DNA of 64,000 bases from Nitrospirota bacterium (lineage in GTDB: Bacteria; Nitrospirota; Nitrospiria; Nitrospirales; Nitrospiraceae). Location of the stretch: the NCBI GenBank assembly GCA_963701855.1, contig CAVPBK010000009.1, positions 256,001-320,000 of the forward strand, read 5' to 3'. A program made the translations under genes and the position numbers. This document shows, one piece after another, positions 16,810 through 44,093 of the stretch. The stretch's first letter is position 1. Each line of letters begins with the position of its first letter. The notes below the pieces were generated by a model that had not been told where the DNA came from, made no database searches, and saw only the letters and a list, made by a program, of their open reading frames with translations.

Positions 16810-18451
<1,642 letters not shown>

Positions 18452-27615: not shown

Positions 27616-28842
27616 TTATGGACGTCCGCCTCGCACGCACTGAACCGTCTCCCTGGCGATCCAGGTTTCTTCGTCCGCCGCGACCACGTAAGCCGCCAAC
27701 CGCGATCCATCCACACTGATTTTTGCTGCACGACCAGGCGCAAGCCCGATCGCCGCTCGATTAAAGTCGGGATCGAGCCTCAAGCCGCACCATTCCATCT
27801 TCTTGCAAATCCGGTCTCGAATCTCCGGTGCGTTTTCTCCGATCCCACCTCCGAAGACGATGGCATCGGCGCCGCCTAACAGGGCAAGGTAGGAACCGAG
27901 ATACTTGCGCGCCCGATAGCAGAATAGATCAATGGCGAACTCCGCCCGTTTGTCCTGCTCCTGCTCGGCCGCGCGAAGCAGCTCCCGCATGTCGTTTGAG
28001 CGACCTGACAGTCCGAGGAGGCCCGACCGCTCGTTGAGCCACCGCTCGACTTCTGCTGCTTCGACCTTCTCCCGGTCGGACAAGTAGCCGACGATGGAGG
28101 CATCGACATCGCCCGAACGTGTCCCCATCACCAACCCCTCCAACGGGGTGAACCCCATCGAGGTTTCGACCGACCGGCCTTGTGCGATCGCGGCGATGGA
28201 GCAGCCATTGCCCAACTGCAGGGTGATCAGACGCGCCTCCTCCAAGGGAGTCCCCGTCACTGCCGCATATCCATCCGCGAGCGAAGCGTGAGCTATCCCA
28301 TGGAATCCGTAGCGGCGGATCCGGTGCCGCTCTGCCAGCTCAACAGGGAGCGCATACTGCCTGGCGACTTCCGGCATGGTCTGGTGAAAGGCCGTGTCGA
28401 ACACTGCCACCATCGGTCGCGTCGGGCCAAAAGCCGCCCGCGCTCCGCGAATCCCTGCGAGGCACGAGGGATTATGCAGGGGCGCCAACTCGGACAGCGC
28501 CTCGATTCCGGCCTCTACCTGCTCAGTAATCATTGTGGACTTCACAAACTGATCTCCTCCGTGCACCACCCGATGTCCGACCGCTTCGATCTGGCCCAGA
28601 GATCCGGCCAGTCGATCGAGCAGAACACGCAACGCATGCGCATGGTCCCGAATCTCCAACGTCGTCGTCGAACGGTCTACAGCCTGTCCCGTCACCTCGA
28701 AGCTTGCGACGCTCCCGATGCCCTTCACGGCGCCTTGGAGCAATGCCGGCCGAGTTGTCAGTACGCCCCCCGGCTCTTCGACCACCTCCACGAGCCGAAA
28801 CTTGATCGACGAACTCCCGCTGTTGATCACCAGAACCTGCAT
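27616..28842 (-). CDS. ackA: acetate kinase, copy 1
   Basis: Motifs [40 protein letters not shown]. Confidence 0.93.
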
Positions 28843-28880
28843 GTCAATGCTGAAGCCTCGCGGCATGTGCCCGGAAGATA

Positions 28881-29956
28881 TCAGTCATCGTGCCAGTCCG
28901 AGCGATGCGCGGCTGCACTCCGCAGCGGCCGGTTCGTGCCTCCAAGGCTTGTCGGTATAGCTGCCGATGGCGGCTCGCTGTTGCATTTGGCCCGATGATG
29001 GAAGGCCAGCTGGGCGGCTTTCAGGTTTTCGTTTTTGCCGATGCCAGGCTTCCAGCGCCACGATCCTGCAGGGCGCGACCGTATGAAAAACTGATCGTCC
29101 AGGGTTTCGGTCAGATCCAGGCGATTGATGGCATCGAGATGCGCGGTCGCAAGTCACGCTCGGCTGCCCGCCGGACAAGAACACGATGCCGGGAACCGCC
29201 GCCGGCACATGACGGCGCAAACAGCGCAACGTGGCCGTTGCGACCTCCTGCACGGAGGCCTGCTTGGGACAAACTTTTCCGGCGATCACCATGCTGGGTT
29301 TCAGAGAGCATGCCTTCCAGCCGGACGCACTGCTCGAAGAGCGCGTCGAAGACCGTATGGAGCACCCAACTCGTGACCTCCTCGCAGCGTTCGATGGTGT
29401 GAGACCCGTCCATGAGAACCTCCGGCTCCACAATCGGCACGATGCCTTGTTCCTGGCACAGGGCGGCATACCGGGCCAGCGCATGGGCGTTGACGTTCAC
29501 GCACATCGGGCTGGGCAGTGCGTCGGTGATGCGAATGACCGCCCGCCACTTGGCGAATCGCGCGCCTATGGCCGCGTATTCCTTCAGGCGGTCCCGAAGT
29601 CCATCGAGTCCTTCGGTCATCTTTTCCTCCGGTGAACCGGTAAGCACCTTTGCACCGGTATCCACTTTGATCCCCGGAATAATCCCCTGCTTGGATAACA
29701 CTTCAGCCAACGGTATGCCCGCGGCGTTCTTCTGACGGATGGTCTCGTCATACATGATGACGCCGCTGATAAAAGCGGCAGCTCCCGGCGTCGTAAAAAA
29801 CATTTCGCGATAGGTGCGTCGGCTGTCCTCGGTGGAGGTAATCTTCAATGCGTCGAACCGCTTGGTGATTGTGGAAACTGTTTCATCTGCTGCCAGAATG
29901 CCCTTGCCTTCGGCTATCAACTCTCTTGCCGTCTGTTCCAGTTCTTGTCGTCCCAT
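28881..29956 (-). pseudogene. class I fructose-bisphosphate aldolase; 3' part broken by several frameshifts
   Basis: KGILAADE, FAKWR, PIVEPEV in frame; [25 protein letters not shown] and HRAKCN recoverable only by switching frames from about 29305. Confidence 0.88.
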
Positions 29957-30304
29957 ATGGATGCCCCCCAATCTCTGGATTCGTTACTCCTCAATCCCCC
30001 CCGACCCAGTCCCTCTTATTTCCGGCAGATCCATCCGAAATATCTAAAAGAGGAAATACCTTATACATCGCTCTAAGTAGTTGCAACGGTAAATTTTTTG
30101 TAAATTTCCCGTCCTGTTCAGCTCGTCAAGCAAGAGCCTTGCCGTAAATACGTAGCGGGAATGAGTACGCTCTTTTCCTCAGAAACTTTAACTTTTCCAG
30201 AAGTTCAGAAGGGGACAGGCTTCAGATGGAAGGAGGTCCATGGGGAGAAACGCAACAAGCCGCAAGGGGAGTTGTCCTCATTCTCCTCACCCGGGAAAGA
30301 CTTA

Positions 30305-30461
30305 GCCGCTTCCAGGTTCAGCGTGGGTTCAGATCGATTCCGCCGCACCGAAAGTCGATTGCCGTCTTGAGTTTTCCCGTGTTGCGGAACCAGCAGGCCA
30401 TGCTCTTGATCTTCTGGATCTTACTGTTGAGCCCCTCGCTCACCGCGTTGGTCACCGGATG
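30305..30461 (-). mobile_element. ISL3-family transposase C-terminal relic
   Basis: Reads HPVTNAVSEGLNSKIQKIKSMACWFRN..KLKTAIDFRCGGIDLNPR*, followed by a degenerate end ACCTGGAAGCGGC. Confidence 0.75.
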
Positions 30462-30544
30462 TTGCCCCCACAATGTACGCCTTGTTCATCGCGTAGGCAT
30501 ACTGAAGCCGCGGCTGCAGCTTGAAGATGCAGGAGTTTGGCCCG

Positions 30545-30588
30545 TTGTAAACCGCAGGTTGGAGATTCAATTCCTTTCGCCGGCTCCA
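30545..30588 (+). other. 3' half of a tRNA (Thr-TGT-like), att-site-like fragment
   Basis: TTGTAA anticodon-loop remnant, T-arm-like GATTCAATTCC, acceptor strand CGCCGGC-T-CCA; no 5' half upstream. Confidence 0.6.
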
Positions 30589-30709
30589 CACAGTTGAACC
30601 TCCAACCTAGGGGTTTCGAAGGGGATGTGTCCCCTTCGTGGGGAGTATGCGAGGGGGCTGCCCCCTTCGCAAGAGCCGATGAGGCAAGTTTCAGAGCCGA
30701 CCCGGCGAT

Positions 30710-30742
30710 GGTTGGATGGTTCGATTCCTCCCGCCAGCTCCA
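30710..30742 (+). other. second tRNA 3'-end fragment
   Basis: GGTTGGATGGTTCGATTCCTCCCGCCAGCTCCA: T-loop plus acceptor strand and CCA, similar to 30545-30588. Confidence 0.6.
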
Positions 30743-30819
30743 GACTACTCGCTGACATCCCAACCGATTCGGAATCGTCCTCTCCGCTGCTCCGGAGTTT
30801 TGGATACGATCCAGGCCTG

Positions 30820-31641
30820 TCAGTATACCTTCAGGCCTTCCGCGGCAAATTGAGCGCACACGCGTTGAACCAGTTCATGAGTAGGGGGCTCTGTATTTTG
30901 GAGAGTGTAGTTGAGGCCAAGTTCCTTCCATTTGAATCGGCCCAGCTGATGAAAAGGCAGGACGTCGACGCGCTCGATATTCCCCAGACCGGCCGCGAAC
31001 TTGGCGATATGCGAAACGTCCTGCGGGTCGTCGGTTAATGCCGGCACCAGGACAAAGCGGAGCCAGCAAGGCCGTTTGCGGGCAGCCAGCCGGCGCGCGA
31101 ATTCAAGTACAGGGCCGACATCTTTACCGGTCAGATGTCGATGGCGTTCTGCATCCCACGTCTTAATATCGAGCAGCACGAGGTTGATCTTCTCCAACTC
31201 GCCGTCACTGAGGCGATCGCCGAGAAAGCCGTTGGTGTCCAACGCAGTGTGGACCCCCATTTCCTGCGCGGCGGCAAATAACCTGACGACAAACCGGTCC
31301 TGCATCAGTGGCTCGCCACCGCTGATGGTGAGTCCCCCGGACATCACCTTCAGTCCGTGCCGATATTTTCGAAGCTCCTCGATCGCGCGTGAGAGGGGGA
31401 CGGGCGTGCCATTCGTCAGGCTCCATGTATCTGGATTGTGGCAATACAGACATCGGAACTGGCAACCAGACAGCCATGCGACGACACGCATTCCGGGTCC
31501 ATCGACGGCCGATCCAGTGGTAAATGAATGAATGAAGCCGATGTCTCCGCTCTCGAGCGCTTGTTTGATGACCGACTCGGATACTTTGCTACCTTTGTTC
31601 ACCCGGAGCTCGAACGGGCTTTTTGCCTCGAGCAGACTCAT
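30820..31641 (-). CDS. pflA: pyruvate formate-lyase activating enzyme (radical SAM)
   Basis: VDGPG, CQFRCLYCHNPDTW (CxxxCxxC), SGGEPL, LPFHQLG; adjacent to pflB. Confidence 0.96.
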   Translation of the reverse strand: MSLLEAKSPFELRVNKGSKVSESVIKQALESGDIGFIHSFTTGSAVDGPGMRVVAWLSGCQFRCLYCHNPDTWSLTNGTPVPLSRAIEELRKYRHGLKVMSGGLTISGGEPLMQDRFVVRLFAAAQEMGVHTALDTNGFLGDRLSDGELEKINLVLLDIKTWDAERHRHLTGKDVGPVLEFARRLAARKRPCWLRFVLVPALTDDPQDVSHIAKFAAGLGNIERVDVLPFHQLGRFKWKELGLNYTLQNTEPPTHELVQRVCAQFAAEGLKVY

Positions 31642-31850
31642 TTATCATTTCCGGTGCCATGGCTTGTTACCTCCCGCCGTAGCAGTGATTGTAATCCGTT
31701 CCGCCTTGGCGCAAACCCGCGCAGAGCGCAATCAACCCCACGATGCCGACATGCCATTGACGGCATAGGCTTTCTCCACTCTCAACGACGATTTTAAAAC
31801 CAAGAGCCCCAGTTCTCGTGTTTGCCTGCAAAAGTTTACGAGCACGCCCG

Positions 31851-34118
31851 TCATGACCCATGGAATGTGCGATTGATGACATCCAGTTGTTGCTCCCGCG
31901 AGAGGCGCACGAAGTTGACGGCATAGCCCGAGACCCGAATCGTCAAGGACGGATATTTCTCTGGATGATCCATGGCATCAAGCAGGGTTTCACGGTTCAG
32001 TACGTTCACGTTCATGTGATACCCCGTAGCACCAAAAAACGCGTCGAGTATGCCACGTAGGTTCTTGATTCTATCCTCTTCGATCCTCCCAAGGCCCTCC
32101 GGCAGTAACGTTGTCGTGAGTGAAATGCCGTCAGCGGCGTCGCGGTATGGAATTTTGGCCACCGAAGCAGCCGATGCATGAACGCCGTGCTTGTCGCGTC
32201 CGTGCATCGGATTGGCGCCTGGAGCGAACGGCTGCCCCTTCCTCCGCCCATCCGGGGTGTTGCCGGTATTCTTTCCGTAGACAACATTTGACGTGATGGT
32301 CAGGATCGATTGTGTGTGCAGGGCATGTCGATAGGTCGGATATTTCCTCAGCTTCTTCATGAACGTACTGACAACCCAGGTCGCCATCTGGTCGACGCGG
32401 TTGTCGTTATTTCCAAACTGCGGGAACTCGCCTTCGGTTTGATAGTCGGTAATCAGGCCCGTTTGATCGCGGATCACGCGGACCTTGGCATATCGGATAG
32501 CGGAGAGGCTATCGGCAACCACCGACAGACCTGCCATACCAAACGCCATAGTTCGCAACGGTGCATAATCGTGGAGGGCCATTTCAATCCGCTCATATGC
32601 ATATTTGTCGTGCATGTAGTGGATGATATTCATGGCATTGACGTAGACCCCGGCGAGCCAGTCCATCATCGTCTCGAAGCGATCGATCATGTCCTCGATA
32701 TCGAGGTACTCGCCCTTGACTGGCTCGGTTGCCGGACCCACCTGCTTGCCGGTGAGTTCATCGCGGCCACCATTGATCGAGTACAAGAGGCATTTTGCCA
32801 TATTGGCTCGAGCGCCGAAGAACTGCATTTGTTTGCCGACCAGCATCGGAGAGACACAGCAGGCGATGGCGCCGTCATCCCCCCAGGTACTTCGCATAAT
32901 CTCGTCGTTTTCGAATTGAATTGAACTGGTGTCGATCGCCACTTTTGCAGCAAAACTGCGAAATCCATCGGGAAGACGCGGGGAATACCAGATCGTCAGG
33001 TTTGGTTCCGGCGCCGGACCGAGATTGGAGAGCGTTTGCAGATACCGAAAGCTTGTCTTGGTGACGAGTGGCCGTCCGTCATCTCCCATGCCGGCAATCG
33101 ATTCGGTGACCCATGTTGGGTCACCCGCAAACAGTTCATCGTATTCAGGCGTGCGCAAAAAACGAACGATTCGCAGCTTGATGACAAAATCATCGATGAT
33201 TTCCTGCGCCTGCTGTTCCGTGATCGCGCCGGCCGCAAGGTCGCGCTCGAAATAGATATCCAGAAACGTCGAGGTCCGCCCCAAAGACATCGCCGCGCCG
33301 TTCTGCTCTTTCACCGCAGCCAAGTAAGCGAAGTACAGCCACTGAACAGCCTCGCGTGACGTGCGAGCCGGAACGGAGATATCGAACCCGTACTTCGAGG
33401 CCATCTGCTGAAGTTCCTCGAGTGCGCGAATCTGTTCACTGAGCTCTTCGCGGTCCCGAATGATCTCATCGGTGGACATGGCCGAATCGAGGCCGCATTT
33501 CTCTTCCTGCTTTCGTTCAATGAGCCGGGCGACACCGTAGAGGGCAACTCGGCGATAATCGCCGATGATTCGACCTCGACCATAGGCGTCAGGAAGCCCG
33601 GTCAAAATATGCGAACTGCGGCAATTTCTGACGTCCGCCGTGTAGGCATCGAACACGGCTTCGTTATGAGTCTTTCGATATTTGGTAAAGGTCTCAACTA
33701 GATGTGGCTCTGGTTCGTATCCGTATGTCTTCAGCGCGTTGAGAACCATCCGGAATCCGCCGTTTGGCATGATTGCCCGCTTGAGCGGCGCATCGGTTTG
33801 TAGGCCGACGATCACTTCATGATCTCGATCGATGTACCCTGGAGCATGCGCCGTGATGGAGCTGGGAATCTGAGAGATATCGAGTACCCCCTTCTTGCGC
33901 TCCTCCACAAAAAGGTCAGTGAGGATTTTCCAGATCTTCTTGGTACGCTCGGTTGCCGGAGCGAGAAATGAATGATCTCCTTCGTATGGTTTGTAATTCT
34001 GCTGGATAAAGTTGCGAACATTGATTTCCCTTTGCCAAAGACCCGGATTGAATCCCTCCCAGCCTGGAGCTATCTTGGCGCGGTTGGATTCAGGTTTCGC
34101 TGAAACAGAGGTAGCCAT
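31851..34118 (-). CDS. pflB: pyruvate formate-lyase (formate C-acetyltransferase)
   Basis: [17 protein letters not shown], active-site IACCVS, glycyl-radical loop IRVSGYAV. Confidence 0.97.
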
Positions 34119-34134
34119 GGTACTTCTCCTCCTG

Positions 34135-35314
34135 TTAACGCAATTTAAGCAGGTTTGCCGTATGCCGGGCGATCATCAATTCCTCATTGGTGGGGATCAC
34201 CCACACGGAGACCTTGCTTTGGAGCGTCGAGATCCGCGGACCTTTTCGGGCATTTGCCTGCGTATCGAGTGCGACGCCCAACCATGCCGACGCTTCGCAG
34301 ATCCGCTGGCGAATCGCCGGCGAGTTTTCGCCGATGCCGGCGGTAAACACGAGGGCATCGACCCCGCATAGAACGGCGGCGAGTGCACCGATCTCCTTGG
34401 CGGCGCGATAGACAAAGTAGTCCACCGCAAGCCGCGCTTCCGGCTCGGCTCGTCCCAGCAGGTCGCGCATATCGTTGCTGATCCCTGAGATCCCCAAAAG
34501 ACCGGACTTTTTGTACAGCACAGTTTCTACTTCTTTCGCTGAGAGTTTCAGGCCTTGAAAGAGATGCAGCACGACGCCTGGATCGAGCGTGCCGGGCCTC
34601 GTACCCATACAGAGACCATCAAGCGGAGTGAAGCCGAGCGTGCAATCGACGCTTTTCCCTCCTCGCAGCGCGCATAAGCTCGCCCCGCTTCCGAGATGTG
34701 CGACGATGACGCGGGCATTGGCAATTTCTGGAGCGACCTCCGGCAAAACCGACGCGATATATTCGTAAGACAAGCCATGAAAGCCGTATCGTTGCAGACC
34801 TGCTTGGCGAAGGTCACGCGGGAGCGGGATCAGTTCGGCAACGGCGGGTTGTCCACGATGAAAGCTGGTATCGAAGCATGCCACCTGCGGCACATCGGGC
34901 AATCGTTCGGAGACGGCTTCGATGGCTGCCAGATTGTGAGGCTGATGAAGGGGCGCCAGTGGAATCAACTCGCGAAGCTCCGTAAGGACTTTCGGGTTCA
35001 AGATTGTCGGCCCGGCGAAATGCGCCCCACCGTGGACGACGCGATGGCCGACGCCCACCACTCGCGAGCCGCCATATTTCGATCTCAGCCACACCGCGCT
35101 CGCATTTATGGCCTCACGACCGTCGCGAGCGGCAACATCCTGGTTTGCCAAGCGGTTCTCCGTCGGCGTCTTTCACAGAGAGACGAGGTGACGTGCCGAT
35201 TCCTTCGATTTGGCCCCGCGCTTCCACGCGCCAGGCTTCGCCAGCCGGTCGCTGAAACACGCAGAACTTCAGACTCGACGATCCTGCATTGACCACCAGC
35301 CCATAGTCGTCCAC
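34135..35314 (-). pseudogene. ackA: acetate/propionate kinase, copy 2, with +1 frameshift near 35158 (possibly a sequence error)
   Basis: N-terminus VNAGSSSLKF (GTG 35314 after AGGAGG) and body [19 protein letters not shown] lie in different frames. Confidence 0.88.
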
Positions 35315-35323
35315 GGCCACCTC

Positions 35324-36256
35324 CTACGGCCTCTTCCGCCGCGCATGAGCCACCAATACTGCAACGGCACAACTGGCGATCCTGGCACGCACGCTATCGG
35401 CCCGGCTGGTTAGGATAATGGGAACCCGTGCACCCAGGACCATGCCTGCGCTGTCGGCTTTGGCAAGAAAGCTCAATTGCTTGGCAAGCATGTTACCCGC
35501 TTCCAAATCAGGGGCGAGCAAGATGTCGGGATCGCCGGCAACCGCGGATTGAATGCCTTTTGTCTCGGCTGCTTCCTTGCTGATGGCGTTGTCAAATGCC
35601 AGTGGTCCATCCAGGATGCCATTCTTGATCTGCCCACGATCAGCCATCTTGCAGAGCGCCGCCGCATCGATCGTGGCCGGCATTTTTGACGTAACAATTT
35701 CAACCGCGGCGAGGATGGCCACCTTGGGTCTTTCCAGACCCAAAGAGACTGCGAGATCGATTGCGTTCTGGCAGATATCAACCTTGTCCTCCAGACCAGG
35801 CGCGATATTGATCGCGCCGTCCGTAATGAGCAGAGGCTTGTGATAAGTCGGGACATCCATGAGGAAGGCGTGGCTGATGCGGCGTCCCGTGCGCAATCCA
35901 CCCTCGCGCGAGACGACCGCGCCCATGAGCTCATCCGTGTGCAGGCTTCCCTTCATCAGAATCTCAGCTCGACCTTCTCGAATGAGGGCAACAGCCTTCT
36001 CTGCTGCCGCATGGCTGTGCGGTACATCGATGATCTCCAGGTTCTTGAGATCGATGCCGGACGCCGCTGCCGTCTTTCTAATGCTGGCGGCTGGTCCAAC
36101 CAACAGCGGTATGATCAATCCTCGCTGGTACGCTTCGACCGCTCCGCTCAAGGCCGTCGCTTCACAGGGATGTGCCACCGCGGTAGGAATTGGCTCAAGA
36201 TTTTCGCACCGCGCAAGGAGTTGTTCGTATTTTCCTGTTCCAGTGGCATAGGTCAT
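35324..36256 (-). CDS. pta: phosphate acetyl/butyryltransferase
   Basis: Motifs LMKGSLHTDE, DGPLAFDNA, PDLEAGNML, LTSRADS. Confidence 0.88.
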   Translation of the reverse strand: MTYATGTGKYEQLLARCENLEPIPTAVAHPCEATALSGAVEAYQRGLIIPLLVGPAASIRKTAAASGIDLKNLEIIDVPHSHAAAEKAVALIREGRAEILMKGSLHTDELMGAVVSREGGLRTGRRISHAFLMDVPTYHKPLLITDGAINIAPGLEDKVDICQNAIDLAVSLGLERPKVAILAAVEIVTSKMPATIDAAALCKMADRGQIKNGILDGPLAFDNAISKEAAETKGIQSAVAGDPDILLAPDLEAGNMLAKQLSFLAKADSAGMVLGARVPIILTSRADSVRARIASCAVAVLVAHARRKRP

Positions 36257-36259
36257 GGC

Positions 36260-37558
36260 TTATCTCCTCCTTGCGTCGGCTGCCGTCGGTGTGGTGCGTG
36301 CTGCCGATCCCGTCTCTTTCAACAACATGGTCAACACGACCGCGATGGCCACGCCATAGAGAAGAGAGACAAAGGTAGACTGGTAATGCTCCGCCTTCAT
36401 TGGCGAAGCTCCCCCTGACGCGGTGTACAGAATCCAACTGAACACCGGTCCGAGTAAGGCGCTGAACGTAAAATTCAGGAAGTTGATCACACCAGTCGCG
36501 GTGCCACCAAAGTGCGGCGGGTTGGCCTCTTTGATCACGGTGTAGGGCAACATCGCCGCACCGGATGCGATGCCGGCGATAAGGCCTACCGAATACGGAG
36601 GGAACAGGCCCGTCTTCCCGTAGAGGATCCAGCCCAGACACGCGAGCAGCACCAGGGAGGCGCTGATGATCACCGGCTTGCGCCGTCCGATTCGATCGGA
36701 AATAAGTCCAAGCAGGGGGCAACCAATGATCCAACCGAAGGGAACTGCGGCCGAGCGCATGACTGCCGAGCCGTACTCCAGACCATGCGCTTCCTGGAGG
36801 TAGCGGACACCCCAAATCATGTCGAAGATCGTTGTCGGGATGAATAGCAACCCGGAGATCACGCCACACAAAATCGACTGCGGATTCTTGAACACGGTTT
36901 TGAAACCTCTGGCCGTGCTCTTCAATCCACTACCGGGCAGTTTGGTCGGTTCGTCTTTCGGAAGGAGGACAAACAAGATTGCGCCAATCAACAAACCGCC
37001 GACTCCCATTCCTGTCCAAAAGATATTCCAGGCTAACCCGTGCCCGATCAGAGGCCCGACGAGGAACTGTCCTGCCGATCCGCCCCCCATTCCAAACATC
37101 TGGGTGGCGCCGATCAACGTGGCGGCACGCGACGGCGAAAAGTTTGTGGTTGCGATATAGATCGCGCCTACAAGCGCAAAGACTCCGCCGGCGCCCTGCA
37201 TGAACCTCCCGACACTCGCGAAATTGTGGTTGCCTGTCGCAAACAGCAACGCCCCAATACCGACGACAGCCGCCGCTCCTGGCAATAGGCGGCGCGGCCC
37301 AAGTCGATCCATCGCCGCTCCAGCGACCAAACTGAAGGGCGAGTATCCGTAATAGAACAAGCCGACGAGGGAAGCGACAGCGAGCGGGCTGATTCCGAAC
37401 GCATCGCTCAGCTCCGGCATCATCACCGCCGGAGCCGAGCGAAGAGCGTACTGGTAGAAATAGTAGATCGCCGTTAACATCCAGGCAATGACAGCGAGAC
37501 GGACGCTCTTGTGTAAATCTCTCTTGCCTGTCACTTCAATAGTGGCTGCCGTTTCCAT
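36260..37558 (-). CDS. MFS transporter
   Basis: About 12 TM segments; motif A GAAMDRLGPRR and SDRIGRRK. Confidence 0.92.
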   Translation of the reverse strand: METAATIEVTGKRDLHKSVRLAVIAWMLTAIYYFYQYALRSAPAVMMPELSDAFGISPLAVASLVGLFYYGYSPFSLVAGAAMDRLGPRRLLPGAAAVVGIGALLFATGNHNFASVGRFMQGAGGVFALVGAIYIATTNFSPSRAATLIGATQMFGMGGGSAGQFLVGPLIGHGLAWNIFWTGMGVGGLLIGAILFVLLPKDEPTKLPGSGLKSTARGFKTVFKNPQSILCGVISGLLFIPTTIFDMIWGVRYLQEAHGLEYGSAVMRSAAVPFGWIIGCPLLGLISDRIGRRKPVIISASLVLLACLGWILYGKTGLFPPYSVGLIAGIASGAAMLPYTVIKEANPPHFGGTATGVINFLNFTFSALLGPVFSWILYTASGGASPMKAEHYQSTFVSLLYGVAIAVVLTMLLKETGSAARTTPTAADARRR

Positions 37559-37585
37559 CAGTTCTCCGTCCGTTGCGCGGCTCGA

Positions 37586-39136
37586 TCAACAGAGCGTCAC
37601 GGAGACGGCCAGTCCGGCCTCGCTCGTTTCCTTGTACTTACTGTTCATTTCCTTGGCGGTCTGAGCCATCGCCGTGATCGTGGCGTCCAAATCAACCCGA
37701 TGTCTGCTTTCGATCTCATTGGTGGCGATCACGTAAGCGGTCCAGGCCTTGACGGCGCCGAAAGCGCATCGCTCAATGCACGGGACCTGAACGAATCCGG
37801 CGACCGGGTCGCAGGTCATTCCCAGATGATGTTCCAGCGCCGACTCCGCCGCGTTCTCGACGACCCGGGGACTCGCGTCGTATGCGGTCGTGAGGAGTGC
37901 CGCGGCCATCGCCGACGCGACGCCGATCTCCGCCTGGCAGCCACCCTCGGCGGCAGATAGCGTCGCATTGTGCTTGCACAGGTAACCAATCGCCGCCGCC
38001 GCAAGCATGCCTTGGCGGATCTTATCTGCCGGAACCTTGCGCTGTTCGCTCAGCCCGTACACCAGGGCTGGCATGACTCCGGCGGACCCTCCTGTCGGCG
38101 CGGTGATGACGAGGTGGCCCCGCGCGTTTTCCTCGGACGCCGCCAGCGCCCACGCCGAGACGACACCAATGGCGCGATCCGTCTCGTATTTATCGTCCAT
38201 GGCGCGTTTGAACACGGTTGCCGCCTTGCTGTGCAGCTTGATGGGGCCAGGCAACACGCTGTCTTCCGGAGCACTCAACCCTGACTTCACAGCGGCGATC
38301 ATCGCGTTCGTGATCTTGTCGATGAAGGCATAGACCTCCGCCTCGCTCCTCCCGGGGATCGCCATCTCGTTGGCGAGGATGACTTGCGCAATCGTCAAGT
38401 TGTTTTTCTCCGCGTGCTGCCGAAGTTCTTTCATCGTCGAGAACGGGTACTTCGGCTGGTTTTTCTTCGGAGGCGTATAGCCTTTCCACTCGATGAATCC
38501 GCCGCCCACAGAGTAGTACTCTTGCTCCAGCAGCACATCCTTTCCTGCCAGGAGCTTGCAGGTCATGGTGTTGGGGTGCGGGAAGTCGCCCTTGGGGGCA
38601 TCGTAGACAATGTCCTTGAGACTCACGCTAACGGTCTTGCTGCCGAGCTTCACCGGAAACGACTGGTCAGGCTTATCGCGCAGGCTGTCGAGAAACGCGG
38701 GGTCAACGGTTGCCGGCTCCTTCCCGACCAACCCCGCGAGCGAGGCACGCTCCGTACCGTGCCCTTTGCCCGTCGCACTGAGGCTGCCATACAAGTGAAC
38801 CTTGAGCGCTGTTGCTTTGTCGAGTGTGTCCGCCGGCAGTTTGGTACAGCGCTGGTAGAATTCGTAGGTAATGCGCATCGGGCCGATCGTGTGCGAGCTC
38901 GAGGGACCAGGCCCGACTTTGTAGAATTCGTCCAGCGTCGTCATCACCGGCCCCTTTTTCTCCTTCACGACGTTCAGATCGTTTGAGAGCGGCGGCGGCG
39001 GCCCTGCAGTGGACCGCTTTGTTCTCTCCTCAGCGCTGACCGGTTGACCCAGTATCACCGCAGTTGCGCCGATCAACGCGCTTCGCATTAAGAAAGTGCG
39101 ACGATCGACACCAGGCGGGATTTCTTGCGAAATCAA
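37586..39136 (-). CDS. sdaA: Fe-S L-serine ammonia-lyase (single chain) with twin-arginine signal-like leader
   Basis: VGPGPSSSHTIGP, APTGGSAG, GGCQAEIG, GMTCDPVAG..VPCIERC; leader DRRTFLMRSALIGATAVILGQPVSA. Best RBS/ATG is at 39233, one base out of frame. Confidence 0.92.
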   Translation of the reverse strand: MISQEIPPGVDRRTFLMRSALIGATAVILGQPVSAEERTKRSTAGPPPPLSNDLNVVKEKKGPVMTTLDEFYKVGPGPSSSHTIGPMRITYEFYQRCTKLPADTLDKATALKVHLYGSLSATGKGHGTERASLAGLVGKEPATVDPAFLDSLRDKPDQSFPVKLGSKTVSVSLKDIVYDAPKGDFPHPNTMTCKLLAGKDVLLEQEYYSVGGGFIEWKGYTPPKKNQPKYPFSTMKELRQHAEKNNLTIAQVILANEMAIPGRSEAEVYAFIDKITNAMIAAVKSGLSAPEDSVLPGPIKLHSKAATVFKRAMDDKYETDRAIGVVSAWALAASEENARGHLVITAPTGGSAGVMPALVYGLSEQRKVPADKIRQGMLAAAAIGYLCKHNATLSAAEGGCQAEIGVASAMAAALLTTAYDASPRVVENAAESALEHHLGMTCDPVAGFVQVPCIERCAFGAVKAWTAYVIATNEIESRHRVDLDATITAMAQTAKEMNSKYKETSEAGLAVSVTLC

Positions 39137-39359
39137 CCGGTCCGCGCGGCCAAGCGGGCCTTCCTGGCCGGCCTCATGTGTGTGTTCTTCCGAATTGAGA
39201 TCACCAGCCTCGTGTCTTTTCTTTGTTCCTCATGTCGTCCCTCCTTCGTTTGAAGCAATGTAATCTCGTTCGTCAAACTCGTCGACTACCGTGATGAGCG
39301 CAGCCGCCGTTGTTGTGAGCACGGCGCATGTGCGACGCCGGTTCACGGCCGACAAAAGG

Positions 39360-40907
39360 TCACCAATTCCCCAGATTCACGAGGTCGTACTGCAAGACGA
39401 AGTTAAGCCGGATGTCGTCCCCTCGCTCCCCGGTTTTCACCGTATGTTGCCCCCACAAGAGTCCGCCCCCGACCGTGAATCCTGCACCAGGACTGTACAT
39501 CAGATTGCCTTCCGCATACTGGGTGCTCGTGAAGTTACTGTTCGAGTTGAGGGTTACCGTAGGAGACGCGATGTTCGTCGTACTGACATGCAAATATCCA
39601 TAGGTGAATGACGAGCGCCATCGTTCAGCCCAAAAATGCTGATACGAACCAAACGCTCCCCATGCCGGCAGAGCGACAATCGTCCCGTCCGGCTTGACGC
39701 CGACGTCTAGGCCGGTCCCCTCCCCGAGGTCGTTTATGTACCGGGCAATCCCGTCCCCGATGATGCCTTGGACCATGACGTTGTCTTTCTTATAGACCGT
39801 CGCGGCAGCCGACACCATGCCGCCCCATCCGAAGACATGTTTATCAGTCCCCGGAGTGACAAAGCCGCCCAGGTCGCGGAACAACCAGGCATTCTGAATG
39901 TGGAATCGGCTCTGCTCATGGCGGTATCGAAGGACAAAGTCAGGGATCGGGTTGTTTACATTGATGGCTGTGGTTCCACTCGTGACGGTCCCTGGCATTT
40001 GCGTGTTCGGTTGCTCGACAGACACCGCAATATTGTTCTCCTTGTTCATCGCGTAGGTATACCGGACCTGCGGTTGCAGTCTGAAGATCCAGGAGTTCGG
40101 TCCTTCGAAGTCCACCGTGTCCGGAATGGCATCCTGGTCTCCCCAGGCAGTCCAGGTCTGTCCGACGAGTACATTCTGCCATTGACCATAAAAATGGCGC
40201 AGCCGGAAGCTGTTCGTCGTATTCGGGCCGTTGTTGAAGTCGTTCTCATAATAGATGCGCAGGGGGCCGTAATTCGTGTTGTTCCTGATTTCGAAGCTGA
40301 TTCTCGACGGAGCCACACTCATGCTGGTGTTGTCGCTTCCCGGATTGGGACCGGTTGGAATCGATGAGGTCACAAATTTGGACGTATTGCCGGCTGGGCT
40401 GAAATCATGAATCACGTCCGTCCTCGCGAACCCCCCGAGCCGCAACATGGTCTCGGTTCCAGGCAGGCGAAAGAATCCCCTGAGTTGAGGATCGAACGGT
40501 GCATTGTCAAGCCGCGGATCGGCGTAGTTGTCTTGGCGCAGCATCCCGCGCTCGCGTTCATGCTCGGGAACTTCGGCGCTCGTACCCGGCGTCGGACGCT
40601 GGTATCCCTCCTCACGGTTGACGTTGCTCTCGCCAACCTTAGGTGAGCCGCGATCTTTCTTCAGTTCCTCCACCATCTGTTCGAGAGACTTCACCCGTTC
40701 TTTTAACGATTCATCCGACGCCGCTGATGGCGCTGGGCCTTGTCCCGGTTTACCCTGATCTTGGGCCACGGAAAAGGTCGGACACAACAGAACAAGAATT
40801 GAGGCGATCGCGAGAATCGTCCGGACTATCGAGGACACGGGACGCCTTCGTGCGTCGGACGGACAGGTTTCGACCATCTCCTTGTTGGTTAGTTGTGATC
40901 TTCTCAT
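39360..40907 (-). CDS. DcaP-like trimeric outer-membrane porin
   Basis: Signal peptide, short coiled coil, then FRLRHFY, GQTWT, DFEGP, QPQVRY, PDFVLRY strands; RBS AAGGAG. Confidence 0.82.
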   Translation of the reverse strand: MRRSQLTNKEMVETCPSDARRRPVSSIVRTILAIASILVLLCPTFSVAQDQGKPGQGPAPSAASDESLKERVKSLEQMVEELKKDRGSPKVGESNVNREEGYQRPTPGTSAEVPEHERERGMLRQDNYADPRLDNAPFDPQLRGFFRLPGTETMLRLGGFARTDVIHDFSPAGNTSKFVTSSIPTGPNPGSDNTSMSVAPSRISFEIRNNTNYGPLRIYYENDFNNGPNTTNSFRLRHFYGQWQNVLVGQTWTAWGDQDAIPDTVDFEGPNSWIFRLQPQVRYTYAMNKENNIAVSVEQPNTQMPGTVTSGTTAINVNNPIPDFVLRYRHEQSRFHIQNAWLFRDLGGFVTPGTDKHVFGWGGMVSAAATVYKKDNVMVQGIIGDGIARYINDLGEGTGLDVGVKPDGTIVALPAWGAFGSYQHFWAERWRSSFTYGYLHVSTTNIASPTVTLNSNSNFTSTQYAEGNLMYSPGAGFTVGGGLLWGQHTVKTGERGDDIRLNFVLQYDLVNLGNW

Positions 40908-41029
40908 GGCAATTCTCCTTGTCGTTGAGGTCACTGCCCACTGTCTGCCGCAGCCTTGCATGGCTGAATGGGAAAGGATCCCTTGAATCGCAGATCGAGC
41001 GGTGTCTTGTCTGGTCTCGGCTCAGCATG

Positions 41030-41145
41030 GGGGTCCTGCCGGAGCATCATCTCAGGAACGAGTCCGAGGACACGGTCAATCGTGGCATTAGGCTCATCGT
41101 CACGATAAGCACCCTAGTTCTAGGCTTGGTCACGGCCTCAGCCAG
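41030..41145 (+). pseudogene. internal fragment of a DUF4239-like membrane protein gene
   Basis: LPEHHLRNESEDTVNRGIRLIVTISTLVLGLVTASA with no convincing start or continuation. Confidence 0.5.
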
Positions 41146-41340
41146 TCAAAGGAATCTGAGCGGCCAGAAATTCTTGGCCTCCGCGTCGGTGAGAATCCTA
41201 TTGGCGGCGACGATGAGCTTCTTGTCGGCTTTGATTTTCTCTTTCAGAATGTCCATGTTCATCTGCTCAGCCTGCTGAGCATGAACCGGCCCTAGAATGA
41301 GAAACGACAGCATGAGCATCCCGATCTGCAGAATCATCAT
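41146..41340 (-). pseudogene. truncated secreted protein
   Basis: RBS GGAGGAG, signal peptide ending VHA, then DILKEKIKADKKLIVAAN..LTDAEAKNFWP and an abrupt stop at the junction with the opposite-strand fragment. Confidence 0.5.
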
Positions 41341-41404
41341 GATACGTTCTCCTCCCTTGGTTAATTCACGACCGGCCATAGACATATCTCGACGGTAGCT
41401 ACGC

Positions 41405-42043
41405 CTACAACACCGGCTTAATCTCGACGAATGGGGTGACCTCTTTCACCCCTTCGGTGGCGCGGATGATGCGCAGGACGCTCTGCCGCTCATCCTCGCT
41501 CCGAGACCGGCCGATGAGGTACACGACGTTCCGGACCGACCGCCACCGGTAGTTGACCGAGTTGATACCGCGAGTCGAGATCAACTGCGCGTTGATCTTC
41601 GTTTCGATCCAAAAATCGTTGACGGTCTGTTCGACGCCGCTTTTCTGGGAAGCGTCCTTGTTCTTGGCCGCCTCCCGCCGCTGTTCCTGCTCCGCCTTGG
41701 ACACAAGCTGGATCTCGTCGTAGATCTTTCGTATGCGGGGATCCGACTGCTGGACTAGTTGGACCACGTCCTTCTTCATCTTGGCATCGTCGAGCGTGCC
41801 AGTCAGCATCACCCGCTGCTCCCAGACGTCCGTCTTGACGTCGAGCAGCAGACTTTTATCCTTGTCAGCCAGGGCGGAGAGGATACCGGTGTCGATCTTC
41901 GCATCAAGGATATGATCGTCATTGGAACGATCTTCCAGGGCCGTTTTGGCCGCTTGCTCATAGACCTGCATGCATCCGGTCGCGCCGAGCACGGCGACCC
42001 CCGCCACAGTGACCAAGACCATCCGTGCAATACATTGATTCAT
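41405..42043 (-). CDS. dual BON-domain lipoprotein
   Basis: Lipobox ATGC; two BON repeats (D..LDAKI..V..LTG; D.WIETKI..VYLIG..GVKEV). Confidence 0.88.
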   Translation of the reverse strand: MNQCIARMVLVTVAGVAVLGATGCMQVYEQAAKTALEDRSNDDHILDAKIDTGILSALADKDKSLLLDVKTDVWEQRVMLTGTLDDAKMKKDVVQLVQQSDPRIRKIYDEIQLVSKAEQEQRREAAKNKDASQKSGVEQTVNDFWIETKINAQLISTRGINSVNYRWRSVRNVVYLIGRSRSEDERQSVLRIIRATEGVKEVTPFVEIKPVL

Positions 42044-42074
42044 GATGTCCTCCCCTTTTGTTGAGTGCATGGCA

Positions 42075-42232
42075 TTAGCAGGATGCTGAAAAAGTCCGCC
42101 AGCGTTATTGAAAGGTTAAGGCTGAGGCTAAGGTTGAGCAAACAAGAACCTGTTCGATGCTTAACCTTAACCTCCACCTAAGCCTTCTTCATTTGCTGCG
42201 GCCTTGCTGAACAGCCTTTTTGAGCATCCTGC
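42075..42232. mobile_element. MITE-like element with family A ends and a different (6-bp period) interior
   Basis: CAGGATGCTGAAAAAG ... CTTTTTGAGCATCCTG inverted ends; interior GGTTAA/GGCTGA units then TTAACC/TCCACC units. Confidence 0.7.
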
Positions 42233-42819
42233 GACTATTTTGACATCGGCATCCACACCGTTTACAAACCTGGCCCTTTGGGCTCAGTTCGAGCGCTCCT
42301 TCTCGACTGAACGATCGACGGTCAAGAAAACCTAGTTCCATGTGAGTCCTGGACATTCGAGCACGATGTCATCGAATGCGCTGCCCGGCGAGCGAGGAAT
42401 TTTTCCCTGACTTGCTGATCAAGGCGGTACATATTGGGGACTCATATATCAACTGCTGAAGAAATGCAATGCACAGTCACCGCGTCGTGCAGCTAGAGCG
42501 CCAGGCAATGTTCGGGAGACTGCGTAGCAGCATAAATTCGGATTAACAAAGGGTTAAGCATTTCGAAGAGCTACTCGTGTAATGCGACTCAATCATGTGG
42601 TGGGGTGTTTAGGGGCAACCACGTACTGTATGGTTGCCCCTAATTTCCAGAATTAAGCCCGATGGTTCCCATCGAGTTGAAGCGGCTCAGGCACAGCTTC
42701 TCTTTTCAGAATGTCAAAACCCCAAAGAGAGTTTCCGGCATATGGCTGCTATATAGCTGGTCTTTCTCACAACCGCTCTCGGAAGGCGAATTCGATCAAT
42801 AGAATTGCCGCTGATACCA

Positions 42820-43007
42820 TAGGAGCCTGCCCGACATTGACCGTTCTACTGCGGCGAACGATCTGCAACCATCTGCGTCGTGCTCGGCCCTGAAAAATCC
42901 TCAACGTATTCCAGTGAATACGCCTCCGGTTTTTTCTGGCCTTGCGCCGCTCATCTGGTTGTATCTCCTTCGCCTCGCCACGAAGGCAATGTCGGACAGG
43001 CTCCTAG
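42820..43007. mobile_element. family B MITE, 188 bp, copy 1
   Basis: Terminal inverted repeats TAGGAGCCTG(C/T)CCGACATTG; near-identical inverted copy at 47590-47777. Confidence 0.85.
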
Positions 43008-43093
43008 TCCTTGAGGACTGTATGATGTCCATGGCGGGACATCATGCAAAGAATACATTTTCCCTACGAGCCAAACTTTACCAGTACGCAAAC

Positions 43094-43123
43094 TTGACGC
43101 ACCTTGACTGCTGATGATAGTTT
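43094..43123 (+). promoter_or_regulatory. putative sigma70 promoter for atpG
   Basis: TTGACG, 18-nt spacer, extended -10 TG-A-TAGTTT, about 70 bp upstream of the atpG start. Confidence 0.4.
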
Positions 43124-43190
43124 CCGTCTCCTATTTCGCACTGAGTTACCATAAAAACTCTTCTTCGACGAACAAGTAGGTATAGCCGAC

Positions 43191-44093
43191 ATGCCCAGCC
43201 TTCAATCCGTCAGACGCAAGATCGATTCCGTTAAAAAAACCCAAAAAATCACGAAAGCCATGAAAATGGTTGCGGCGGCGAAACTCAAACGCACGCAGGC
43301 CCGCATTCTCGCGGCGCGGCCCTATGCCCTGAAGATGCGGGAGGCGATCCGCAACCTCAGCCGGCGTGTCAATCGAGAGGCTCACCCGTTGCTCCGTAAA
43401 CGGGAAGGCGCCCACCGTAACGTGATCGTAACGGTCGTGACGAGCGACCGCGGATTATGCGGGGCATTTAACGCGAACATTCTCCGCACGGCCGTCAATG
43501 CACTGAAGGAATTGGAATCCCGCGGTGTGAAGGCTGAGGTCGCTGTGGTCGGTCGGAAAGGCCGCGACTTTTTTCGGCGACGAGACTGGACGGTGCGTCG
43601 TGAGGTGGTGGACATCTTCGATAAATTGTCGTTCGAGCACGGGATGGTGATGGGAGAAGAATTTCCAGCCATCGTCGAATACTCGGAGGGGCATATCGAT
43701 GCGGTGTATATCATCTACAATGAGTTCAAATCCGCCATCCAGCAACGGGTGGTTGTCGAACAGCTCCTTCCATTCGACTGGATCGTTGAAATCACCGGCG
43801 TGAAGGACCTTGACCAAGCCACCGATGTCGTCCCCGGAGGTTATCAGTATGAACCGAGTGAGGACGAACTGCTTAGGCAGCTTCTTCACCGTAACCTCCA
43901 CGTCCAGGCGTACCGTGTGCTGCTGGAATCTTCGGCCGCCGAGCAGGGTGCCCGCATGGCGGCTATGGACGGCGCCACGCGCAACGCGGGTGAACTCATC
44001 AAAAAGCTGACGACCTACTATAACAAGACCAGGCAATCCGTGATCACCAAGGAACTCATGGATATAGTCGGTGGCGCCGAAGCCCTGAAATAA
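43191..44093 (+). CDS. atpG: F1Fo ATP synthase gamma subunit (no other atp genes adjacent)
   Basis: KITKAMKMVAAAK, TSDRGLCGAFN, ARMAAMDGATRNA, YNKTRQSVITKELMDIVGGAEAL. Confidence 0.97.
   Translation: MPSLQSVRRKIDSVKKTQKITKAMKMVAAAKLKRTQARILAARPYALKMREAIRNLSRRVNREAHPLLRKREGAHRNVIVTVVTSDRGLCGAFNANILRTAVNALKELESRGVKAEVAVVGRKGRDFFRRRDWTVRREVVDIFDKLSFEHGMVMGEEFPAIVEYSEGHIDAVYIIYNEFKSAIQQRVVVEQLLPFDWIVEITGVKDLDQATDVVPGGYQYEPSEDELLRQLLHRNLHVQAYRVLLESSAAEQGARMAAMDGATRNAGELIKKLTTYYNKTRQSVITKELMDIVGGAEALK

Follow-up and report, generated by a model that had tools for sequence, protein, structure and literature searches.

A candidate mobile cassette for serine fermentation, with a predicted exported serine dehydratase, in a Nitrospirota genome

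Introduction

The tdcABCDEFG operon of Escherichia coli, which serves the anaerobic degradation of threonine and serine by a pathway whose logic is to yield ATP without oxygen, is the closest known system to the gene cluster described here. This cluster, referred to below as the cassette, is a run of seven co-directional genes on the minus strand at 30820-40961 of a 64,000-nucleotide stretch of Nitrospirota DNA (the window; positions 256,001 to 320,000 of contig CAVPBK010000009.1, assembly GCA_963701855.1). In order, the genes encode a porin, an L-serine dehydratase (sdaA), a major facilitator superfamily (MFS) carrier, phosphate acetyltransferase (pta), acetate kinase (ackA), pyruvate formate-lyase (PFL; pflB) and the PFL-activating enzyme (pflA). 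The dehydratase carries a leader with a twin-arginine translocation (Tat) motif, and we lean, with modest confidence, toward the reading that the cassette is a horizontally spread unit for gaining energy from L-serine without oxygen, with the first step located outside the cytoplasm.

The tdc operon is described in a table as FNR-activated and as encoding the Fe-S L-serine deaminase TdcG, the carrier TdcC, the acetate/propionate-type kinase TdcD and the PFL-type keto-acid formate-lyase TdcE (PMC2634741). The cassette appears to work alike, yet it lacks TdcB (a pyridoxal phosphate-dependent threonine dehydratase), a TdcC-type permease, TdcA/TdcR and the RidA-type TdcF. It has instead an MFS carrier, both Pta and a PFL activase within the block, a Tat leader on the dehydratase, and no FNR site that we could find. 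None of the seven genes matches the TdcB, TdcC or TdcA families, and on these family comparisons the cassette is an analogue of tdc, not a member of it.

Two further comparisons are of use. The E. coli focA-pflB-pflA genes, together with pta-ackA, supply PflB, its activase, Pta and AckA, and lead to acetate, formate and ATP by a route whose biochemistry is established; the cassette holds the same four enzymes but lacks FocA, and its four genes form a single block that follows sdaA and the MFS gene. Removal of nitrogen before uptake also has precedents, since Campylobacter uses a periplasmic asparaginase and gamma-glutamyltranspeptidase for periplasmic deamidation ahead of import. Another such enzyme is asparaginase II, AnsB. 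It is entered as 'periplasmic L-asparaginase II' in PMC2634741. A like sequence of events, nitrogen removal in the periplasm followed by import of the carbon skeleton, is proposed for the cassette, but AnsB and the Campylobacter enzymes are cofactor-free hydrolases exported by Sec, whereas the cassette SdaA is an Fe-S lyase that would need Tat. No description of an exported serine dehydratase or of this cassette was found in open-access papers and preprints. What is new, and is well supported by the comparisons below, would be an exported Fe-S dehydratase within a known kind of pathway.

Results

All seven genes were assigned by open reading frame (ORF) listing and family scans, and each passed the cut-off of a named family (Pfam for the porin and the MFS carrier, NCBIfam for the other five), in agreement with the seven co-directional genes named by the first-pass annotation, which had been made from the letters alone. 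The gene sdaA (37586..39232) encodes a single-chain [4Fe-4S] L-serine dehydratase with an N-terminal Tat leader and has its frame broken near 39212, its longest intact ORF being 37586-39136 with a TTG start at 39136. It is followed by a carrier gene with 12 predicted helices (36260..37558; MFS_1, 129 bits), a pta of the short PRK11890 type (35324..36256; NF008852, 518.4 bits against a cut-off of 413), a split acetate/propionate kinase gene, ackA (34135..35314; TIGR00016, 345.3 bits against 293.4 for the 338-residue part at 34135-35151), pflB, which encodes a glycyl-radical enzyme (31851..34118; TIGR01255, 1135.5 bits against 994.2), and pflA, which encodes a radical-SAM activase (30820..31641; TIGR02493, 288.5 bits against 231.75). 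Upstream of sdaA lies the gene of a DcaP/Porin_2-like outer-membrane porin whose N-terminus resembles a signal and which has a short coiled coil (39360..40961); the earlier annotation had likewise called it DcaP-like but had begun the gene at 40907, and the ORF reaches 40961. As calculated from the coordinates, the gaps are 27 nt (sdaA-MFS), 3 nt (MFS-pta), 9 nt (pta-ackA) and 16 nt (ackA-pflB), all under the 30 bp stated before, while 127 nt separate the porin gene from the sdaA ATG at 39232 and 209 nt separate pflB from pflA. The PflB translation contains IACCVS and RVSGYAV and the PflA translation contains CQFRCLYC, which we take to be the Cys-Cys and glycyl-radical motifs of PFL and the CxxxCxxC cluster motif of the activase. 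This PflB is the single PFL copy of the genome.

SdaA matched TIGR00720 with 415.2 bits (cut-off 345.1), with SDH_beta at residues 70-218 and SDH_alpha at 244-510 of one chain, and is the sole SdaA of the host genome. Residues 66-516 aligned end to end with the Legionella L-serine dehydratase (LSD) 4RQO (E 2e-93), and the cysteines of GCQ, TCDP and PCIER as well as the C-terminal Cys were kept; in 4RQO these residues presumably bind the cluster. The catalytic region and cysteines are thus shared with the type 2 single-chain LSDs (Legionella 4RQO; E. coli SdaA, SdaB and TdcG). Unlike them, the cassette enzyme begins with a leader and linker that together span about 95-105 residues if the upstream ATG is taken as the start, and it is about 37-48% identical to its leaderless relatives, from which it stands apart as a separate clade.

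The Tat signal peptide is encoded at 39032..39232 on the minus strand and consists of a long acidic n-region followed by VDRRTFLMRSALIGATAVILGQPVSA, and cleavage is predicted before EE. RR is encoded at 39098-39103. Read up to the catalytic domain, the leader runs ...ISQEIPPGVDRRTFLMRSALIGATAVILGQPVSA/EERTKRSTAGPPPPLSNDLNVVKEKKGPVM: the twin-arginine motif is followed by 17 residues without charge that finish in V-S-A, and then by a linker rich in proline. The motif D-R-R-T-F-L-M fits the S/T-R-R-x-F-L-K-like Tat pattern, and SALIGATAVILGQPVSA makes up the 17 uncharged residues that close in V-S-A. A scan for SdaA in one genome per species returned 553 relatives among 598 candidate stretches, and the best 80 loci were examined, together with the 120 closest catalogued proteins (82-100% identity, all with an N-terminal extension). 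The twin-arginine motif was present at 76 of the 80 loci, with RR invariant and F kept in 74 of these; the remaining four loci end at contig edges (L047, L062 and L073) or have a broken frame (L069). In the protein set, RR-x-F occurred in 116/120 sequences, and the other four are gene calls that start at a Met directly after the motif.

The end of the leader takes two forms. At residue 19 past RR, 32 loci have Arg, followed by x-V-S-A, and 31 have Cys after V-M/I-T/N-G, a lipobox; overall, 45 loci have an end like that recognised by signal peptidase I and 31 have a lipobox Cys like that of Tat-dependent lipoproteins. The linker that follows is rich in Pro and Ala and variable in length, so that the distance from RR to the catalytic domain ranges from 61 to 169 residues. 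When the codons for D, R, R, F, R, S and A in the 76 related loci were compared with those of the window, 270 differences were synonymous and 18 non-synonymous; this count, although not a formal test, indicated that the leader is translated and constrained. The host genome has two tatC matches beyond the cut-off (180 and 171 bits). The Tat signal that the first-pass annotation had placed on the serine dehydratase is therefore borne out by its conservation, by purifying selection and by the alternation with lipobox forms, and the proposal that the leader is a genuine, selected export signal is well supported by these comparisons.

Since characterised enzymes of the SdaA family are all cytoplasmic, the main alternative holds that this SdaA too remains in the cytoplasm or is exported only in part, with the leader serving as a maturation or chaperone-binding peptide or as a membrane tether and the MFS carrier importing serine for a tdc-like pathway. 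Vestigial chaperone-binding Tat motifs without export do exist, such as that of NarG, and a serine carrier beside a serine dehydratase is the classical arrangement, as with tdcC. A leaderless isoform could also arise at the 55 of 78 loci that have a Met at the canonical start; at the other 23, however, this residue is Leu, Val or Ile. The leader is moreover complete, from RR through the 17 uncharged residues to V-S-A or the lipobox Cys, and such an end is sensible only after translocation, which counts against retention in the cytoplasm. The variable Pro/Ala-rich linker, the Sec-signal enzymes and porins that neighbour stand-alone copies (see below) and the weak MFS family matches, all to organic-anion subfamilies and none to known serine carriers, also argue against it. 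We regard retention in the cytoplasm as unlikely, though not negligible.

A library of 50%-identity cluster representatives was searched with SdaA. The Tat-type SdaAs collapsed to one full-length representative, P0121, at this level of clustering, and the next full-length relatives were 37-48% identical, most of them starting at the catalytic domain. In a tree that took in five leaderless SdaAs of the host's own family, the Tat-type SdaAs formed one clade (support 100, branch 0.81) with phyla interleaved within it, and the five leaderless sequences fell apart from this clade. Two distant representatives at 44-45% identity, P0127 and P0130, have different Tat-like leaders (MDRRDF... and MTLRRTFLK...), so an export signal may have been added to SdaA more than once.

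The window proteins were compared with the 80 loci by tblastn, and order and strand were judged by a script rule. The full order sdaA-MFS-pta-ackA-pflB-pflA was present at 28/80 loci by this rule and at no fewer than 29 when L036 is included, where the MFS match overlaps the end of sdaA by 15 nt. Four loci lacked pta only, L061 and L076 lacked the MFS gene, L065 lacked both pta and ackA, and seven loci were cut by contig ends. By the same rule 34 loci had no other cassette genes downstream, a count that includes L069, where the remaining genes are located upstream of sdaA, and five loci with less than 3 kb of room. According to their record titles the loci belong to about seven phyla (Acidobacteriota, Planctomycetota, Pseudomonadota, Myxococcota, Binatota, Verrucomicrobiota and Nitrospirota), and identity to the window across the loci was 80-94% for PflB and 62-86% for the MFS carrier. 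Housekeeping proteins show far lower identity between phyla, and the excess indicated that the block moves horizontally. Conservation of the gene order in other genomes had been proposed as a check, with genes that are not conserved together as the outcome that would speak against the cassette; the order was found to be kept across phyla.

Within the host's family the cassette is rare. Among 200 other genomes of the family, 30 of them of the same genus, a Tat-type SdaA was present in three (G172, 91% identity; G042, 88%; G177, 76%), and PflB beyond the cut-off in two (G172 and G042), in both cases on the contig and strand of sdaA and about 3.5 kb past its end. Neither protein was found in the 30 same-genus genomes. 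A leaderless SdaA of about 41% identity occurred in seven family genomes. Locus L001, titled 'uncultured Nitrospiraceae bacterium', showed 77-85% nucleotide identity to the window from 40741, within the porin gene, to 30733, and the similarity stops there, about 90 nt beyond pflA. Past pflA, the L001 sequence is similar (72-77%) to two stretches elsewhere in the window, 2-2537 and 7599-10177. The block is shared but its flanks differ, and the seven genes are therefore one movable block that is differently placed in two related genomes.

The edge of the block beyond pflA carries debris. The last 36 residues of an ISL3-family transposase are encoded at 30321..30485 on the minus strand (PF01610 positions 205-240/240, 27.5 bits against a cut-off of 23, E 3.4e-6), and a 3' fragment of tRNA-Thr lies at 30545..30595 on the plus strand (93% over 46 nt to the 3' part of the full tRNA-Thr(TGT) on contig C11). 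Neither ARAGORN nor Rfam found a whole tRNA at the cassette flank, and the window holds no second tRNA-Thr fragment marking another end of an island. Elsewhere in the genome there are more partial copies of this tRNA-Thr piece, two on contig C6 and one further on C9.

The sequence of the MFS carrier was of limited help in naming its substrate. The best subfamily match was TIGR00893 (ACS) with 62 bits against a cut-off of 395, followed by OPA and AAHS, and none of these reached its cut-off; no match to a PDB sequence was found, and the Atlas clusters were generic. In Foldseek, the AlphaFold2 (AF2) model (pLDDT 85) gave matches of similar quality to FLVCR2, to SfMCT (a bacterial monocarboxylate carrier) and to G6PT, MdfA and DgoT. 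In an alignment of 35 orthologues, R40 was invariant and fell in the first-helix motif YYFYQYxLRSAP. An MFS orthologue follows sdaA at most cassette loci, and at L056, L066 and L068 the sdaA-MFS pair is kept with no pfl genes within 10 kb; the genes after the pair at these three loci include a SulP transporter and glycogen phosphorylase, and no pyruvate-using enzyme was found among them. Such pairs without pfl are in keeping with a carrier whose role is linked to the dehydratase and not to formate. Import of pyruvate is thus suggested because of the proposed location of SdaA and the sdaA-MFS pairs, not by the carrier's own sequence.

The window porin matched Pfam DcaP (PF19577) with 51 bits against a cut-off of 27. 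Like the Acinetobacter DcaP channel it has an N-terminal coiled coil before the barrel, but it covers only positions 66-352/410 of the profile, and Porin_2 scores equally (50.6 bits). In L001, the porin whose gene immediately precedes sdaA shares 79% identity with it. A porin of the DcaP-like family or of the second family described below lay within 3 kb of a Tat-type sdaA at 36/80 loci and within 500 nt at 26. The porin accordingly counts as a common associate of Tat-type sdaA and not as a core part, since most cassette-type loci lack an adjacent one. The earlier proposal that it belongs to the pathway accordingly holds as a recurrent linkage, but not as a core element of the cassette outside the host's lineage.

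The neighbours of sdaA copies without a cassette were also surveyed, with 29 of the 33 loci classed by eye as cassette-less being parsed (L029, L040, L042 and L059 were left out). RidA proteins (Ribonuc_L-PSP) with a Sec signal adjoin a Tat-type sdaA at L024:13020-13559, L026:5536-5970 and L035:11580-12017. RidA clears the enamine/imine product of serine dehydratases, and these neighbours suggest a periplasmic enamine/imine deaminase partner; in the host genome the search for a signal-bearing RidA gave only a weak match of 28% identity. Other neighbours of stand-alone copies were signal-bearing aspartase-like lyases (L007 and L012), Sec-signal asparaginases (L007 and L054), a glutaminase (L034), subtilases and a DcaP-like porin (L054). 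Directly after stand-alone sdaA at L014:7210-8952, L018:11740-13167 and about 23 further loci lies a family without a Pfam match, in which a signal and a short coiled coil precede a body rich in beta structure. The AF2 model of this family (pLDDT 69.7) is all-beta from residue 86, with OprP (E 1e-10), Omp32 and OprO as the best matches, and the model points to a second porin family resembling anion-selective porins. Homology between this family and the DcaP-like porin was considered and rejected (hhalign probability 6.5%). As a separate observation, a signal-less 2OG-FeII_Oxy_5 protein is encoded about 14 nt downstream of the Tat-type sdaA at four Acidobacteriota loci (L009:11592-12332, L011:11568-12227, L026:7690-8433 and L028:11568-12227).

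The first-pass annotation had overlooked single-base frameshifts in sdaA and ackA; it had also not named the E. coli tdc operon as a precedent. In ackA, the first 54 codons, from the GTG at 35314, sit in a different frame from the remainder, and this N-terminal piece matches Acetate_kinase profile positions 3-36 (E 4e-4, 19.6 bits, just below the 22-bit cut-off). In sdaA, the ATG at 39232 is preceded by AAGGAGG, and the longest ORF begins at a TTG inside the leader because one extra base near 39212 breaks the frame from that ATG. Two more genes are split likewise, a class-I aldolase gene at 28885-29971 and the phosphoglucose isomerase (PGI) gene at 16810-18451, which consists of two overlapping frames. 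Contigs from four short-read DNA runs of soil metagenomes (X1 to X4) were compared with window positions 28800-41000, a range that leaves the PGI break, the fourth, outside. They have exactly one base fewer at 29306, 35150 and 39212, which are all three breaks of the compared stretch; the base at 35150 is absent from the X1, X2 and X3 contigs and that at 39212 from those of X1 and X3. Nearly identical strains thus have unbroken genes for aldolase, ackA and sdaA, and the window carries one-base insertions, for which assembly errors are the probable and simplest account.

Other differences were seen in these comparisons. A compensating +1/-1 pair of indels at 36263 and 36277 in the X1-X4 contigs alters the last codons of the MFS gene. 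The pflB-pflA spacer differs too, 139 nt of it (31633-31773) giving way to 45 different letters in contigs of the other runs. The X2 and X4 contigs reach 30545, the start of the tRNA-Thr fragment, with different sequence that may be the missing 5' portion of a tRNA.

If the extra bases were real, the cassette could be a decaying, non-functional acquisition, a relic beside mobile-element debris. Two of its seven genes are out of frame as assembled, the ISL3 remnant and the truncated tRNA-Thr adjoin it, and it occurs in 0/30 same-genus genomes. Against decay, at least four genes in 64 kb share the same type of break, including the housekeeping genes for PGI and aldolase; the contigs of the other runs lack exactly the one base at each compared break; no premature stops or larger deletions were seen; and P0002, a catalogued protein of 500 residues, matches the window SdaA at 100% identity over 97% of the SdaA length, while P0001 is 98% identical to it. 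Decay is therefore considered very improbable.

In the host genome, which measures 4.3 Mb and is 97% complete, there are genes for an AmoA-family protein (309 bits) and for a formate dehydrogenase alpha subunit (819 bits), the latter adjoining the gene of the only FNT channel, as well as two 1146-residue molybdoenzyme frames of NxrA size. These features fit a complete-ammonia-oxidiser-type Nitrospira, a probable nitrifier, and are in line with the earlier conditional remark that a nitrifying host could use both ammonia and formate. The label is kept provisional because the nearest named relatives of the AmoA-family protein are betaproteobacterial AmoAs (about 58% identity) and no Nitrospira-named relatives of it were found. 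The earlier remark that no FocA is present is correct for the window but not for the genome, as the FNT channel lies beside formate dehydrogenase on another contig. It is conceivable, although doubtful, that ammonia released in the periplasm would serve ammonia monooxygenase and formate from PFL would serve formate dehydrogenase, so that one serine would feed nitrification, formate oxidation and substrate-level phosphorylation. If this were true, organic nitrogen would have a direct entry to nitrification, gained as a mobile cassette.

Beside the cassette, within about 27 kb downstream and on the same strand, lies a run of genes for glycogen breakdown and the phosphoketolase pathway (window 3525-29971, minus strand). 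It comprises genes for debranching enzyme, 6-phosphogluconolactonase, Usp, transketolase, PGI, a phosphoglycerate-mutase-type phosphatase, MalQ (4-alpha-glucanotransferase), phosphoglucomutase, glycogen phosphorylase, phosphoketolase, a second AckA and the class-I aldolase, and suggests a wider anoxia-survival region with a second source of pyruvate. On this ground, and with PflB as the genome's only PFL, the pfl-pta-ackA genes of the host might mainly ferment glycogen-derived pyruvate as one arm of such a region, with serine deamination as a side function in nitrogen scavenging or serine removal. The unit from sdaA to pflA is, however, kept in many phyla and in other contexts, and L001 shares the block from porin to pflA but not the flanks. 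It is thus the cassette, and not the neighbourhood, that carries the link to serine. A mainly glycogen-fed role appears distinctly unlikely as the principal explanation, although it is compatible with the use of serine. Farther off, at 43191-44093 on the plus strand, a lone ATP synthase gamma-type gene is followed by three ORFs without a Pfam match and may be part of an alternative ATPase operon.

Signals for regulation were sought as well. The window has 26 matches to an FNR/CRP-type consensus, against 21.4 expected, and none lies upstream of the cassette genes. A scan of 30000-43200 for promoters and terminators gave nothing exceeding shuffled controls.

Discussion

Every part of the first-pass reading that can be tested from sequence was supported. 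Sequence comparison establishes the families of the enzymes, the conservation of leader and gene order, and that the block is mobile; on this basis the following mechanism is proposed. SdaA would gain its [4Fe-4S] cluster in the cytoplasm and leave folded via Tat, to be freed by signal peptidase I in this host and lipid-anchored in many relatives. Serine would get to the periplasm through the DcaP-like porin, where SdaA would convert it to pyruvate and ammonium. The MFS carrier would then take up pyruvate, perhaps in exchange for formate or acetate, and activated PflB would convert it to acetyl-CoA and formate. Pta and AckA would finally produce acetate, each serine would yield one ATP, and the route as a whole would be redox-neutral. 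The genes would be co-transcribed and would be used, and perhaps induced, under anoxia.

Several points weigh against this mechanism. An oxygen-labile, solvent-exposed [4Fe-4S] cluster in the periplasm, far from repair systems, is biochemically awkward. The signal was called by comparison and by motif rules; its n-region, with RR at about residue 44, is longer than usual, and the c-region of the window has Gln where most relatives carry Arg. The family and fold matches of the MFS carrier are generic and do not separate pyruvate from serine or formate, two cassette loci lack this carrier, and most lack an adjacent porin. In the 350 nt before sdaA, an FNR-type site with at most one mismatch was present at 1/40 loci only. 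As assembled, sdaA and ackA are frameshifted, and the copy would be decaying if the extra bases were real.

The cassette seems to be a mobile block found in many soil bacteria and present here in a probable nitrifier. If its first step does take place as proposed, SdaA would be the first non-redox [4Fe-4S] hydro-lyase acting outside the cytoplasm, and the widespread clade of exported SdaAs, free or lipid-anchored, would constitute a new class of Tat cargo. The cassette would also add a layout of amino-acid fermentation, in which deamination precedes uptake, in abundant but poorly cultured soil phyla. It would offer part of an explanation for how ATP formation might continue during anoxic spells in aerobic soil bacteria, a probable nitrifier among them, and serine would then link organic nitrogen, ammonium release and formate cross-feeding.

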